Below are positions 22,011-40,764 of a stretch of 64,000 bases of DNA, one piece after another (within the stretch, counting starts at the first letter, position 1; each line of letters opens with the position of its first letter). This stretch comes from a phage. Under the pieces are notes generated by a model. The model saw nothing but the letters and a program-made list of their open reading frames with translations. It did not search any database and was not told the DNA's origin. The stretch lies in sequence record PZ386965.1, one strand, 5' to 3'. The translations under genes were made by a program, and so were the position numbers.

Positions 22011-22145
22011 TTTACCATACTCGTTTCAATAAGATTCACTATGCCGTTTACCATGTTATAAGTAAACATCGGATAATTGTATTGTACTACAACATAAGCG
22101 ATAAGCAAAAGTTTCATTTTGTTCTCCGTTCGTTTTGATAGGACT

Positions 22146-22174
22146 ACTATAACATAGTCCTATCAAGTTGTAAA
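22146..22174 (-). promoter_or_regulatory. early promoter within 28-bp palindromic promoter-stem-loop element
   Basis: Minus strand TTTACA-N17-TATAGT; perfect 10-bp inverted repeat GATAGGACTA/TAGTCCTATC (22137-22164) spans the -10. Confidence 0.5.
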
Positions 22175-32864: not shown

Positions 32865-32892
32865 AATATTCTCCTCATGTTTTAATAGGACT

Positions 32893-32921
32893 ACTATAAC
32901 ATAGTCCTATCTTGTTGTAAA
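32893..32921 (-). promoter_or_regulatory. early promoter within 28-bp palindromic promoter-stem-loop element
   Basis: Same element as 22137-22164 (ATAGGACTACTATAACATAGTCCTATC); TTTACA-N17-TATAGT. Confidence 0.5.
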
Positions 32922-32934
32922 CAGTTTTGTGAAG

Positions 32935-33891
32935 TTATTTGAAAGGTTTTACCATATGAAAATTTTGTTTGAAACGCTTGACGTAATCGTCGTGTCCTAA
33001 GCTTTGATACATACTTACTACTTTGCCATAGTTCTCCCAGGCATACTCACGGAACCAGCCTGATGTGATTGAAGTACAGACCTTTTCTAATGCCATCATA
33101 AAACTATCACGAGGATGGATTTCAAAGCCATTAGGAATCTGAGAACGTTCTAATGCTAGTACACATGATTCTTCGTATACGCCGGCCAATTTGACCATTT
33201 CCGGTAATGATTCGAACTTCTCGCGTGAGGTCATGACTTCAGAACCATCTTTCATATAAAATGTATACGCTGGACGGTCTGTTAGTGCAATGGCTTCGTG
33301 AATAGTATCATGGTCATACGTATAGATGTCATCTTTAAAGAATGCGCTTTTAGAAGTGTCAAGAACCGGGTGAGCATAGTTCAAGGTTTCTTTCTGGCGT
33401 TTCAGCATAATTTCAGTAAGTTCATCGTCCAGTGTAACACCTTTACCACGAAGATACTGAATATGGTTCATAGTCTTTAAAAAGAATGGATTATTTTTCT
33501 TGAAACGATGAGACATCTTAATTGCAAGACACATCTCAGGAGTTGCCCAGTAAAACCCGTTCAAACGGTCTTTAGTCAAATTTTTCTTGGCGTATTTTAA
33601 AAGGTCATAAGAAGACGTGAAATCTTCAGGAGTGAGTTCACCGACTAATTCACGGACATTAGTGATTGCCGGAACAATGTATGCTTCAAAATGAGTTTCG
33701 CGTCCGTTATGGAAGCATTTGAAAACTTGGACATCAGGGTTATCTTGGTGAACATATACACCCATCATTTGATTTTTGAATACATTCCAAGAACCTTGGT
33801 CCGCAATAAAGTCCCAATCACTATTTTTGATAGCGCTAGAATCAATAAGGCCGTGATAGTGAAGTGCACGAGAACCAATAACCAACATCAT
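32935..33891 (-). CDS. hypothetical protein
   Basis: 318-aa ORF. Confidence 0.5.
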   Translation of the reverse strand: MMLVIGSRALHYHGLIDSSAIKNSDWDFIADQGSWNVFKNQMMGVYVHQDNPDVQVFKCFHNGRETHFEAYIVPAITNVRELVGELTPEDFTSSYDLLKYAKKNLTKDRLNGFYWATPEMCLAIKMSHRFKKNNPFFLKTMNHIQYLRGKGVTLDDELTEIMLKRQKETLNYAHPVLDTSKSAFFKDDIYTYDHDTIHEAIALTDRPAYTFYMKDGSEVMTSREKFESLPEMVKLAGVYEESCVLALERSQIPNGFEIHPRDSFMMALEKVCTSITSGWFREYAWENYGKVVSMYQSLGHDDYVKRFKQNFHMVKPFK

Positions 33892-33916: not shown

Positions 33917-34168
33917 TTAAATTTCGCGACATGCGATATTATATTCATCCCAGAGGTCGTCATGTGAAGCCTCTACCAATGGAACGATTGTGCCGTTTAT
34001 GTCTTCATTATAAGGGCAAATTGTACAGTGCGCATCTTCGAATCGGATGCCTTTGTGTTCAGATTTTTTATAACGCATATCGAATATCTTTGCAAACTTT
34101 TCACGAGTAATAGTTTTAGCAACTACTTCGGTTCCGATACTTTCGTAATAAATCATTGTAGACTCCAT
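33917..34168 (-). CDS. hypothetical protein
   Basis: 83-aa ORF; CTIC...C pair. Confidence 0.4.
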   Translation of the reverse strand: MESTMIYYESIGTEVVAKTITREKFAKIFDMRYKKSEHKGIRFEDAHCTICPYNEDINGTIVPLVEASHDDLWDEYNIACREI

Positions 34169-34184
34169 TTAATTTGATAGGACT

Positions 34185-34213
34185 ACTATAACATAGCCCT
34201 ATCTTGTTGTAAA
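34185..34213 (-). promoter_or_regulatory. early promoter within 28-bp palindromic promoter-stem-loop element (1 mismatch)
   Basis: GATAGGACTACTATAACATAGCCCTATC; TTTACA-N17-TATAGT. Confidence 0.5.
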
Positions 34214-34218
34214 CTGTT

Positions 34219-34416
34219 TTAGCAAGAATAACTAGATGATACCCAGCCTTGAACAGTAATACTATTATTTGATAACGAGATTGCGTCCTGGAGATTAAGA
34301 CCTGCGTTATCTTCAATCCACAATGTAACTTCTTCACGCTCTTCGGTTGCAATCTGGAACAGGTTTTCTAGGGCAGCTACTGCTGTACGTACAGCACAAT
34401 CTAATTCACGAGACAT
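34219..34416 (-). CDS. small protein, C-terminal GWVSSSYSC (paralog family member 3)
   Basis: 65 aa; shares terminal G-x-W-V-S-S-S-x-x-C with the two genes upstream. Confidence 0.45.
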   Translation of the reverse strand: MSRELDCAVRTAVAALENLFQIATEEREEVTLWIEDNAGLNLQDAISLSNNSITVQGWVSSSYSC

Positions 34417-34425
34417 ATGATTTCC

Positions 34426-34698
34426 TTAACAAGTGTGAGAAGATGCAACCCAACCGCCATCTTCAAGGCTCAAGTTGTAGTCGTATTGGTAAACATCGGC
34501 CCATTCAGCATAACCGTTTTTTGTACAACGTTCAAGATCGGCTTTAAGATGTCCTGGCGAATGATAGGTTCCACCCATGCCATAAGCTGGATACAAGTCG
34601 AATGTTGTGTTTTGTTTATCAGCAATTTCTTTGGCAGCCTCAATAGCTGCATAGATTTTTGCTACGGCTTCAGCCAGTTCGGTTTGTTCTTTAGACAT
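34426..34698 (-). CDS. small protein, C-terminal GGWVASSHTC (paralog family member 2)
   Basis: 90 aa; MSK start; YPAYGMGGTY core; terminal Cys. Confidence 0.45.
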   Translation of the reverse strand: MSKEQTELAEAVAKIYAAIEAAKEIADKQNTTFDLYPAYGMGGTYHSPGHLKADLERCTKNGYAEWADVYQYDYNLSLEDGGWVASSHTC

Positions 34699-34707
34699 AA
34701 TGATTCC

Positions 34708-35013
34708 TTAGCACAACGCAGAAGACGAAACCCAAGCACCTTCAGTAATAACGTAACCATTACCTTCACGCTTAACGTCGCCACCATTATTTTCAATTTC
34801 ATTTTTCATCCACTGGGATACGATTTCACCCTTAGGATAATAAGTACGACCGCTACCATAATCACCTACAGAAAACGATACAGCGTATTGGTCTGCGATC
34901 TTTGTTGCTTCTTCTTCGATACGTTCAGCTTGATTCAGAAGTTTATAAATTGCATCTGAAGCGGATTTGGCATCATTAAACTCTGGTACTTTAATTTCAA
35001 TAATCTTACTCAT
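34708..35013 (-). CDS. small protein, C-terminal GAWVSSSALC (paralog family member 1)
   Basis: 101 aa; MSK start; DYGSGRTYYPKGE core; terminal Cys. Confidence 0.45.
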   Translation of the reverse strand: MSKIIEIKVPEFNDAKSASDAIYKLLNQAERIEEEATKIADQYAVSFSVGDYGSGRTYYPKGEIVSQWMKNEIENNGGDVKREGNGYVITEGAWVSSSALC

Positions 35014-35369
35014 TTTCTACATTCCTTAATAAAGTTTTCGATTGTTTCATTTTCACGTCTAGCTAGGAGTTCATTATAACTAATCATTTGAGAAGCGTAA
35101 ACCTTTTTATTTTTCTTGTTATGGTTTATAAAATCGTAGTAAAAATAGACTACAGTACAAAAGGATGCTATTGATGCAAAGGCTTGGGTATACCGTAAGT
35201 CCTGCCATTGGTCTGTGAATCCACCGGTGTTACCTATAAATCCTAACACAACGCCATCAATAAGAAATCCAACTAATCCAAAGGCAAATCCCATGCCAAT
35301 ACTCATAATAAAAATTAGAATGTTCTCGCCAAGAGAAGGCCATACGGTTAAGAGTTGAGGCTTTTGCAT
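35010..35369 (-). CDS. membrane protein with C-terminal ENFIKECR motif
   Basis: 119 aa; multiple TM segments; ends ...ETIENFIKECRK; stop overlaps next ATG. Confidence 0.45.
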   Translation of the reverse strand: MQKPQLLTVWPSLGENILIFIMSIGMGFAFGLVGFLIDGVVLGFIGNTGGFTDQWQDLRYTQAFASIASFCTVVYFYYDFINHNKKNKKVYASQMISYNELLARRENETIENFIKECRK

Positions 35370-35773
35370 CTTATTTCCTTAACGAATTCCATAGCTTCTT
35401 CATATTCATACTTTTTAACAGCTTCAACATACTGAGCTTGGGCTTTTGCGCACTGAACTTTCCACTCGCGAACTCGAGCTCTGTGATGACGGCCTTGGTG
35501 CCAATATCCTGCCCAATTAATAGGCATTAATAAAAACGGTACAATAAGTGGTGCGACGAACATTAATGAAAACGCTGCATCAGACGATATAACTTTATTG
35601 GAATCTAAAATAGCTCCTATAATCATAAAGATTAAAAATGCTAAAGCTAAAATAGGGCCAAATAGTACTTCGTTTGGGATTAATTTACGTTTGTATTCGT
35701 ATGCCCAGGGCTTAATTGGCATGTACAGGGTTGGCTTTGACATATTCTCTACATTCCATAATAAATTGCTCAA
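35348..35773 (-). CDS. membrane protein with C-terminal EFVKEIRCK motif
   Basis: 141 aa; two TM segments; His/Arg-rich cytoplasmic loop. Confidence 0.45.
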   Translation of the reverse strand: MSNLLWNVENMSKPTLYMPIKPWAYEYKRKLIPNEVLFGPILALAFLIFMIIGAILDSNKVISSDAAFSLMFVAPLIVPFLLMPINWAGYWHQGRHHRARVREWKVQCAKAQAQYVEAVKKYEYEEAMEFVKEIRCKSLNS

Positions 35774-36326: not shown

Positions 36327-36349
36327 CAAAAGGAGGACCGGAGTCCTCC
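36327..36349 (-). terminator. intrinsic terminator candidate
   Basis: 7-bp stem GGAGGAC/GTCCTCC with 4-nt loop followed by T4 on minus strand, just after stop of 36358..36951. Confidence 0.45.
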
Positions 36350-36357
36350 GTATTATT

Positions 36358-36951
36358 TTATTTCAAAGAGTTAATATATTCTTGTACATCAGCAGAAGTG
36401 GTTTCGACACCGGCTGGAGTACCATTGAACGTTTCAACACGAGTCAGAGTGTCTTCGATATCAACCTTGGTCAGTGCAGCAATTTCGATCACATCATCGG
36501 CCGTAGAGATACCAAGGGCATTGGCTGCTCGAGTTTCGCGGATGTATTCAAGTTTGATTGCCAGATTCTGACGAGCATCGTCAAGTTCAACCACCTTACG
36601 AGCAATTTCAATTCGCATAGCGGCATAACCGTCAGCTTTTGTATTAAGTTGTTCGGCAGTTCGACGATACAGAAGACCAAGCTTAGCATGCATGGTAACA
36701 TCTTGTCCTTCAGCCAGGAGCTTACGAATTTCACGTTCCTTAGAAGCGGCTTGCTTGTTCTTTTCATTAACAAGTTCGCGAATACGTTTTTCTTCATTAA
36801 TAGATTTAACAGAAGCCGTTTTTAGTTCTTTGATTTGGGTAATCAACTTATCTGCGGCTGCGTTATACTGTTCTTCGACAGTCAGATTTTTAGCCATAGC
36901 AGTACCCAGTTTAGTGCGGATGAATTCAACAAGTTTCTTCAGTGTGTTCAT
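36358..36951 (-). CDS. coiled-coil protein
   Basis: Trimmed to ATG ([10 protein letters not shown]); 197 aa, heptad-rich Ala/Glu/Lys/Arg composition. Confidence 0.45.
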
Positions 36952-36991
36952 ATTATTACCTTTCAATTGGTGGTTTATTATCCATGAGAGC

Positions 36992-37020
36992 ATTATACTC
37001 TGCTCTCAAGAGTTTGTACA
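36992..37020 (-). promoter_or_regulatory. sigma70-type early promoter with hairpin around -10
   Basis: Minus strand TGTACA-N17-TATAAT; GAGAGC/GCTCTC inverted repeat; near-copy of 6502-6530. Confidence 0.45.
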
Positions 37021-37021
37021 C

Positions 37022-37270
37022 TTATTTGTACGAATTAATAATCTCTTCCATTTTATCCAGAACATGGATATCGATTATACGAGGAAGTGCCGAAAGATTA
37101 GAACCGTCGAAAGATTTAAGGTCTTCCAAAATAATATTTTCAATGGCCTTTAAAGCTTCCGCAGATTCTGATGCAGAATTAAATTCAGGAATTTCTCCAA
37201 AAAGACGTAAGAATGAACCAAAGTATTCTGCGGCGATTTCTTTAGCTTGTTCGATATCAGACTTAAACAT
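37022..37270 (-). CDS. hypothetical acidic protein
   Basis: Trimmed to ATG (MFKSDIEQAK) with GAGGA SD; ORF-track start overlaps promoter. Confidence 0.4.
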   Translation of the reverse strand: MFKSDIEQAKEIAAEYFGSFLRLFGEIPEFNSASESAEALKAIENIILEDLKSFDGSNLSALPRIIDIHVLDKMEEIINSYK

Positions 37271-37298
37271 TTTGTTTTCCTCATTTGTTGGTGGAGTA

Positions 37299-37327
37299 AT
37301 CATATCACCATCCTTGGCGTTTGTACA
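37299..37327 (-). promoter_or_regulatory. sigma70-type early promoter (CCAAGGATGG-spacer family)
   Basis: Minus strand TGTACA-N17-TATGAT; spacer contains CGCCAAGGATGG. Confidence 0.4.
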
Positions 37328-37555
37328 TTATTTTTTAATCAAGTTGACATAAAATTCTGCATCTTCAGGGTGCATGCCTTCGCAGTATTCTTCAACCATG
37401 AACTTCTTAACAGCTTCATAAGGACCGCTCAGATTAAGTTCAGTTGTCCAGAACTTGGAATCTTGAACCGAATCGATACGAACTTCAGGGTGTCGGTTGC
37501 GAATAACTTCTTCGGTGTATTCATAATCAACTACATCAATACTAACTTTAGCCAT
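37328..37555 (-). CDS. hypothetical acidic protein
   Basis: 75-aa ORF with ATG. Confidence 0.4.
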   Translation of the reverse strand: MAKVSIDVVDYEYTEEVIRNRHPEVRIDSVQDSKFWTTELNLSGPYEAVKKFMVEEYCEGMHPEDAEFYVNLIKK

Positions 37556-37601
37556 TTTGTTTTCCTCTTGATTTGATGTGATTACTATAACATAAACTTA
37601 C

Positions 37602-37766
37602 TTAGATGTAAATTATTTCAACGTCACCTTTAGCTGCTTTATAACCTTCAGCCCAAGATACAACAGAGTTTTTATCTGAGGATTCAAATTCAGGCATTGG
37701 ACTTTCACCAATATTCACACAGTATGTTTCTTCATTTTCATCGAACCAAATAATTAAAGTAGTCAT
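37602..37766 (-). CDS. small hypothetical protein
   Basis: Trimmed to ATG (MTTLIIWFDENEE) with GAGGAG SD; ORF-track extension overlaps promoter. Confidence 0.4.
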   Translation of the reverse strand: MTTLIIWFDENEETYCVNIGESPMPEFESSDKNSVVSWAEGYKAAKGDVEIIYI

Positions 37767-37796
37767 TTTGTTTACTCCTCTGTAGTTGATAAGTCT

Positions 37797-37825
37797 ATAG
37801 TAACACCGTCCTTGGTGTTTGTACA
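37797..37825 (-). promoter_or_regulatory. sigma70-type early promoter (CCAAGGACGG-spacer family)
   Basis: Minus strand TGTACA-N17-TACTAT; spacer contains CACCAAGGACGG. Confidence 0.45.
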
Positions 37826-37835
37826 TCATTTATTT

Positions 37836-40719: not shown

Positions 40720-40735
40720 TTGTTTTGATAGGACT

Positions 40736-40764
40736 ACTATAACATAGTCCTATCGGCATGTAAA
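40736..40764 (-). promoter_or_regulatory. early promoter within 28-bp palindromic promoter-stem-loop element
   Basis: Exact copy of GATAGGACTACTATAACATAGTCCTATC; TTTACA-N17-TATAGT. Confidence 0.5.

Follow-up and report, generated by a model that had tools for sequence, protein, structure and literature searches.

Several nucleotidyltransferases (NTases) of the pol-beta fold act on a hydroxyl group of a small partner protein: GlnD modifies PII, GlnE glutamine synthetase and MntA HepT, each at a tyrosine, and CitX/MdcG modify the acyl carrier protein at a serine. The MenT enzymes, which are the closest solved relatives of the phage protein described here, modify the 3' ends of tRNA and not proteins, and the ANT and Lnu enzymes modify small molecules. 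The MenT/AbiEii (DUF1814) toxin–antitoxins include MenAT1-4 of M. tuberculosis and AbiE of Streptococcus. The Ser/Thr phospho-acceptor of the MenT proteins is conserved and precedes the catalytic Asp by two residues; it is T39 in MenT1 and S78 in MenT3 (PMC10435456). MenA1, a short protein encoded together with MenT1, blocks the enzyme by direct binding and induces its auto-phosphorylation (PMC10435456, PMC11375011).

The DNA analysed here is a 64-kb stretch (the window) from a Mosigvirus, an RB69-like T-even phage. Phages of the T-even type are among the best-studied viruses. Though it is present in such phages and ranges from enterobacterial T4-likes to jumbo phages, the gene module described below is uncharacterised. 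Its proteins are clear members of PHROG 899, PHROG 4882 and Pfam DUF7277 and DUF7275, all four of which are annotated as 'unknown function', and the literature searched contained no paper that names these families or connects the small ones with the DUF7275 protein. The early-protein toxicity screen of Mosigvirus AV110 tested only proteins with T4 homologues and therefore did not cover the small genes and the NTase. The NTase fold and pairs of an NTase with a small partner are known, whereas no counterpart has been described for the tail tag, the fold of the partner or the multi-copy layout of this module.

Three small genes and their common tail

The three small genes lie on the minus strand between the lysozyme (e)/nudix genes on one side and the tRNA genes on the other, in the e-tRNA region to which an earlier note on this DNA had assigned them. 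The region is 96-98% identical to that of Shigella phage Shf125875, Escherichia phages JS09 and 55, and many more. Gene 1 (34708-35013) encodes a protein of 101 aa (pI 4.7) that ends in GAWVSSSALC and matches phrog_899 (E 1.8e-22). Gene 2 (34426-34698; 90 aa, pI 4.7) ends in GGWVASSHTC and matches the same family (E 4.8e-19), and gene 3 (34219-34416; 65 aa, pI 4.05) ends in QGWVSSSYSC and matches phrog_4882 (E 1.1e-36). The ORFs thus lie exactly where the earlier note had put them, with the lengths and endings that it gave.

In protein 1, a long N-terminal helix is followed by GDYGSGRTYYP, an acidic hairpin and the tail W94-V-S-S-S-A-L-C101 (codons 34711-34734). Protein 2 has an AYGMGGTYH core and the tail W-V-A-S-S-H-T-C (34429-34452), and protein 3 ends in W-V-S-S-S-Y-S-C (34222-34245) and is devoid of the YG.G.TYY loop. 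The MSK start and the Y..G.GGTY-like core that had been attributed to two of the proteins were also seen: the proteins start with MSK, MSK and MSR, and the core reads YGSGRTY in gene 1 and YGMGGTY in gene 2. As the codons of the tail differ between the copies (tgg gtt tcg tct tct, tgg gtt gca tct tct and tgg gta tca tct agt), the repeated element is a peptide motif and not a copied block of DNA, which bears out the earlier note. These three are the only ORFs of the window with the ending W..[SA]S..C, and 8 of its 387 ORFs of at least 50 aa end in Cys. The chance of one such ending, estimated from residue frequencies, is ~1e-6 per ORF. A chance motif was rejected as the origin of the shared tail.

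The earlier note had allowed for the triplet being frameshifted pieces of one gene or an assembly artefact. No support for this was found. Each gene has its own ribosome-binding site and start, a TAAGGA stop/Shine-Dalgarno junction is present at each of them, and the start of gene 1 and the stop of the membrane-protein ORF before it overlap in ATGA. The pN/pS values against Escherichia phage 55 (0.05 for gene 1 and 0.03 for both gene 2 and gene 3) indicate that all three are coding genes under purifying selection. Furthermore, more than 130 phages that were sequenced independently have the three ORFs at 95-100% identity, and hundreds of clusters contain single-copy homologues of 70-135 aa. The Mosigvirus Bas47 of the BASEL collection has the genes as well. 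The probability of an artefact is practically negligible, and we conclude that the triplet consists of real, selected and translationally coupled genes that are not pieces of one gene.

Translational coupling also links gene 1 to the two overlapping small ORFs just upstream of the triplet (35010-35369 and 35348-35773, minus strand; phrog_2330 and phrog_2604, unknown function), which look hydrophobic and correspond to genes annotated in phage 55 as encoding putative transmembrane proteins. In other lineages, the conserved module does not include these two ORFs. A perfect GC-rich hairpin of 7 bp with a T-run behind it (36332-36349), terminator-like on the minus strand, comes right after a T4 e.6-like gene (36358-36993) and precedes a 205-aa ORF, the first of the genes that run into the triplet.

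As regards function, the earlier note had assigned none, and the databases offer none: all names are 'hypothetical', Pfam and NCBIfam gave nothing informative for the three small proteins, and PADLOC, which covers known anti-phage defence and candidate systems, gave no match better than E 0.01. Structure prediction, which had been proposed as a check, yielded a confident AF2 model of protein 1 (pLDDT 90.5, falling to 63 at the terminal residue), and no solved structure matches this predicted fold.

The three proteins had also been called paralogs. This stands for genes 1 and 2, whose bodies align even with the tails removed (hhalign 99%, E 2.6e-18) and whose products match each other in BLASTP (protein 2 against protein 1, E 9e-5). 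It could not be upheld for gene 3, since its tail-less body reached only 1.5% in hhalign against gene 1 and 14% (E 0.002) against gene 2. PHROG likewise places genes 1 and 2 in family 899 and gene 3 in family 4882. Judging by these alignments, genes 1 and 2 are true paralogs, and gene 3 has demonstrably only the tail in common with them, so that the tail itself unites all three and appears to behave as a portable tag. Copies without the tail were observed as well: P0002 (RB69ORF139c, 71 aa) and P0046 (75 aa, phage mar005P1) are versions of gene 1 and gene 2 that are truncated or frameshifted. Individual copies can thus decay, which is compatible with redundancy among the paralogs.

For the family as a whole, a profile of 24 diverse members was used in an exhaustive HMMER search of 1.84 billion cluster representatives (E<=1e-3). 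The search matched 786 representatives, and nearly every match extended to the last residue of a protein of 68-175 aa. Cys was the last residue in 193 of the 204 members fetched and was followed by a single residue in seven more. Among the 193 members ending in Cys, W(-8) was present in 192, S(-5) in 193 and S(-4) in 192. Upstream of the tail, a long helix leads to 'ADEy.h.F', then to a (G/A)-(D/x)-Y-G-x-G-x-T-Y-Y loop and a variable, very acidic linker. The family is therefore one of phage-specific small acidic proteins (about 60-145 aa) defined by the tail W-x-[SA]-S-S-x-x-C-COOH, and its invariant element is the tail and not the body. No recognisable N-terminal domains were found in the longer members (126-175 aa); a match to UvrB in P0164 was set aside, as the gene call seems to be chimeric. 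Sequence searches of the PDB with the profiles of the small family and of the enzyme described below gave no relative.

Two members or possible relatives deviate from this pattern. P0066 (134 aa, metagenomic) is one of the few members with a Cys neither at the C-terminus nor adjoining it; it consists of two modules, with W-A-A-S-S-Q-S-C in an internal position followed by a second helix-plus-loop unit ending in '...CVWDHSGCAF'. Meanwhile, T4 tk.1 (L002 10349-10549, minus strand) weakly matches the helix and 'F.ISSEYGDAETYY' part of the family profile (E about 0.02-0.03) and does not have the tail at its C-terminus; it may be a distant relative that lacks the tail, or the similarity is due to chance.

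CaaX-like lipidation was ruled out as a role of the tail, its Cys being terminal and not at -4. An S-x-x-C arrangement near the C-terminus recalls lanthionine and AviCys-forming cores. The Ser-Ser-x-x-Cys end might accordingly be cyclised or processed through a thioether or a decarboxylated Cys, giving a peptide natural product, and several precursor genes beside one enzyme would be a RiPP-like layout. However, no dehydratase, cyclase, YcaO, radical-SAM or flavoprotein decarboxylase domain was found in any neighbourhood, the supposed core is conserved and the leader variable, which is the reverse of RiPPs, and the proteins are confidently predicted to fold and have an NTase as the partner. We consider such a precursor role very improbable.

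Linkage of the small genes with a DUF7277+DUF7275 gene

On the contigs of three very divergent members of the small family (a 40-kb contig, an 87-kb contig and a 362-kb jumbo phage), a protein of ~300-325 aa with Pfam DUF7277 and DUF7275 is encoded a few genes downstream. The window has the same protein two genes downstream of the triplet (32935-33891, minus strand; E 1.8e-78 and 3.3e-27), a neighbour that the earlier note had not taken into account. It is a predicted NTase of the pol-beta superfamily, 318 aa long, with DUF7277 in its N-terminal part and DUF7275 in its C-terminal part. The intervening ORF of 83 aa (orf83; 33917-34168, minus strand; phrog_3723) belongs to neither family and is lineage-specific: it is missing from other phage lineages, in which the small genes abut the enzyme gene.

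The linkage was examined from both sides. With the enzyme as the seed, one to four small-family ORFs (E<0.01) were found in 26 of 30 viral loci, all of them upstream and on the same strand, and three of the four remaining loci contain divergent ORFs ending in W.SS(0-2)C at the same place, which raises the count to 29 of 30. At the enzyme locus L016, there was no small gene within 8 kb. With the small proteins as the seed, a DUF7275 gene was present directly downstream on the same strand, often only 3-60 nt away, in 37 of 39 viral loci, a sample biased towards the YGMGGTY subfamily that served as the seed; the other two contigs end before that point, so that all 37 informative loci are linked.

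The number of small genes varies from locus to locus. Among 62 distinct enzyme loci, five had none, 23 had one, 22 had two, three had three, eight had four and one had five, and 109 of the 113 small genes were upstream and on the same strand; as the counting HMM included all three proteins of the triplet, the detection of gene-3-like members is partly circular, and the tail regex gives the same picture. In a raw scan, the largest array was seen on a 9.4-kb viral contig (L055 413-3418), where six tail-tagged ORFs, five upstream and one downstream, surround a single DUF7275 gene. The linked loci range from T4-like phages through phages of 40-100 kb to jumbo phages of 360 kb. When the enzymes were grouped into 28 lineages at <60% identity, the small family was present in 26 of them and the next genuine co-occurring family in 8, and no other gene family was consistently linked to the small genes and the enzyme in these lineages. 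A pattern-based scan of 185,579 bacterial and archaeal species genomes, limited in sensitivity, gave five matches, all of them MAG contigs with the same arrangement. The earlier note had also proposed a comparison with the e.x ORFs of T4, which proved empty: when the whole T4 genome (168,903 bp) was scanned in six frames with the HMM and the regex, neither a small-family member nor a DUF7275 protein was detected.

Taken together, these results show that the triplet is the variable-copy half (one to six genes, in tandem) of a two-gene phage module, the constant half of which is the NTase gene downstream. The small proteins are probably functional partners of the NTase. In 6 of the 28 lineages, the module was seen near tRNA-repair genes (Rnl1-type RNA ligase, PNKP) or adjoining a NAMPT-like NAD-salvage gene, as on a jumbo-phage contig (L005 1-2249) and at L004 4323-5990.

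In this phage, an early promoter and the extra gene separate the triplet from the enzyme. The promoter (34177-34214, minus strand) is of the T-even early type, GTTTACA-17 nt-TATAGT with TG (10/12 with TG in the promoter scan), and is embedded in a 26-nt imperfect palindrome of repeat family D1; the early-type promoter itself runs from 34214 to 34185, between the triplet and orf83/NTase. The palindrome, ATAGG[G/A]CTATGTTATAGTAGTCCTAT, overlaps the spacer and the -10 element of early-type promoters. It occurs in four copies in the window against 0 expected (22138-22163, 32885-32910, 34177-34202 and 40728-40753), all on the minus strand. The copy at 32885-32910 lies directly 3' of the enzyme gene. 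The earlier note had placed the triplet between two copies of this element. One of them is indeed found at 34177, just downstream, but on the upstream side the nearest copy is at a distance of 5.7 kb, and the tight pair (34177 and 32885) brackets orf83 and the NTase gene, not the triplet. Thus, the triplet and the NTase gene both sit among early-type promoters. Looser promoter-repeat families are present at 37012-37834.

This separate transcription context in Mosigvirus would suit small proteins that act on their own. They might, for example, inhibit a protein of host defence or housekeeping or serve as acidic decoys or sponges for it; the tail would bind a host target or a metal, and the NTase would be adjacent because of a shared pathway or co-inheritance. 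Their small size, acidity (pI 4.0-4.7), early-region location, multiple copies and fast-diverging bodies are also typical of anti-defence or host-takeover proteins. Nevertheless, the adjacency to the NTase gene on the same strand is near-obligate in 28 lineages that have diverged deeply, no other feature of the surroundings is conserved, and both partners are absent together from T4. We consider independent action of this kind quite improbable.

The nucleotidyltransferase and its relation to MenT

The enzyme family is large, with 2,201 matches in a protein database clustered at 90% and 734 phage genome records from many host genera. In the alignment of its members, three elements are invariant: G6-S7 at the junction of strand 1 and the following helix, D25-x-D27 in strand 2, and E69 in a strand further along. 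Along with the alpha/beta core, these correspond to the features of the pol-beta superfamily, in which strand 1 is followed by hG[GS], strand 2 contains [DE]x[DE] and a later strand supplies the third carboxylate. This pattern is the classic signature of pol-beta NTases; the catalytic triad is intact, and the enzyme is predicted to have the NTase fold with an intact active site.

The DUF7275 half is even more conserved: K125, H128, R165, E168, H174, H194-D195, H198, E240-E241, C243, E248-R249 and C272 are invariant or nearly so, as is the 'KVCTSITSGWFRE' stretch. The best structural matches of the enzyme were the tRNA nucleotidyltransferase toxins MenT1, MenT3 and MenT4. Compared with the MenT/AbiEii enzymes, the helical domain DUF7275 is much larger and very highly conserved, and its His/Asp/Glu/Cys set was not found in MenT1 by alignment. 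The aminoglycoside and lincosamide O-nucleotidyltransferases ANT(2'')-Ia and LnuA act on small-molecule substrates, have no partner proteins and are about half the size of the phage enzyme.

The structural matches raise the possibility that the phage enzyme nucleotidylates RNA 3' ends in the manner of MenT/AbiEii, with host or phage tRNA as an example of the substrate, and that the small proteins are inhibitors or specificity regulators whose tail plugs or repositions the active site. The small proteins would then be analogous to the short antitoxin MenA1 (PMC10435456, PMC11375011), and the order of the genes, small gene first and enzyme second, equals that of antitoxin and toxin. In this phage the module also lies in the tRNA region, and in the jumbo-phage locus L005 it lies beside the Rnl1 and PNKP tRNA-repair genes.

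Other results argue against such a role. None of the 32 enzyme members examined matched the DUF1814/AbiEii Pfam profile at E<=1, DUF7275 and DUF7277 being the only profiles to pass, so that the phage enzyme stands outside DUF1814 by sequence. The position two residues before D25, which holds the phospho-acceptor in MenT, varies in the enzyme alignment (N, F, K, L, Y, V, P and others), and the conserved Ser/Thr is absent. The module is phage-encoded, and one to six divergent copies per enzyme would be unusual for an antitoxin. The partners, moreover, have a different fold that resembles no solved chain, MenA1 included, together with an invariant C-terminal tail, and the tail-less truncated copies P0002 and P0046 are tolerated. 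On balance, we regard an RNA-directed enzyme with small regulators as unlikely, though it is the main alternative to the reading given below. If the small proteins did regulate a MenT-like tRNA-modifying enzyme, phages would be using a toxin-type tRNA editor, which would bear on the tRNA-centred arms race between phages and bacterial defence.

A possible role of the tail

The analogy that we favour is with GlnD–PII, GlnE–GS, MntA–HepT (HEPN/MNT) and CitX/MdcG–acyl carrier protein, in which an NTase-fold enzyme is paired with a dedicated small protein having an invariant hydroxyl residue. A dedicated small protein of this kind is encoded beside the phage NTase (S(-5) in 193/193 and S(-4) in 192/193 members). 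The differences are that no sequence or fold similarity to PII, HepT or CitD was found in the small proteins, that the proposed site lies in a C-terminal tail and not in a loop, and that there are multiple putative substrate paralogs.

By this analogy, we tentatively propose that the tail may be the docking and modification site of the enzyme, which is the likeliest of the readings considered. The tail would serve as a portable tag by which the NTase engages the small proteins, and the reaction would be protein O-nucleotidylation, in which a nucleoside monophosphate passes from an NTP to the hydroxyl group of either invariant serine. Among the possible reactions, transfer of NMP to an invariant serine seems the most likely because of the precedent of GlnD–PII, GlnE–GS, MntA–HepT and CitX/MdcG–ACP. 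As MenT and ANT/Lnu act on tRNA and small molecules, the real acceptor could instead be an RNA or a metabolite, and the small-gene-then-enzyme order also resembles an antitoxin–toxin pair.

The terminal Cys might anchor or position the tail, possibly against Cys243 and His174 of the enzyme, and the variable acidic bodies would be the effector or decoy parts. The small proteins would appear early in infection and would have diversified through duplication, in keeping with an action on different host targets. Combined, these steps would amount to a phage-specific system of tag-directed protein nucleotidylation, or a protein–nucleotide carrier system, with one NTase, a universal W-x-x-S-S-x-x-C tag and diversifying effectors used early against host targets, and with Cys243/His174 and the tail Cys as the docking site (a metal or disulfide clasp). 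In this complete form, the scheme is rather doubtful. Should the tail be a modification tag, it would represent a new substrate class for pol-beta nucleotidyltransferases and a handle on the host effects of early proteins, and tag-directed nucleotidylation, if true, would represent a novel type of post-translational tagging by viruses.

The residues proposed to face the tail were compared between enzymes with and without the partner. C243 and H174 are invariant in the 32 aligned partner-bearing enzymes. Four distant DUF7275 homologues without a W..SS..C partner, namely Gordonia ClubL gp16, Streptomyces TunaTartare gp209, Brevibacillus Sundance gp087 and Curvibacter P26059A_0052, keep the catalytic residues and H194-D195-H198 and have lost both C243 and H174; C272 is lost in two of them. 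The joint loss of C243/H174 and the partner suggests a partner-specific Cys/His site, with the comparison comprising four very distant sequences and being confounded by their divergence.

Other small-protein ORFs follow distant DUF7275 homologues in Gordonia, Streptomyces and Curvibacter phages (L080 4872-5354 and 5279-5794; L081 4621-4965 and 4838-5308; L083 4861-5235). There are one or two per locus, in tandem in L080 and L081, and they share 'G[WY]Y.S[WYF]DG..[WY][DE]G ... TI.V'; these proteins may be an alternative partner family. In the Brevibacillus phage Sundance, an acidic ORF directly upstream of the DUF7275 gene (L082 3231-3536) ends in a duplicated 'EEEEYSSSYYEE' segment, in which an aromatic residue and a Ser run in an acidic context recall the W-V-S-S-S tail.
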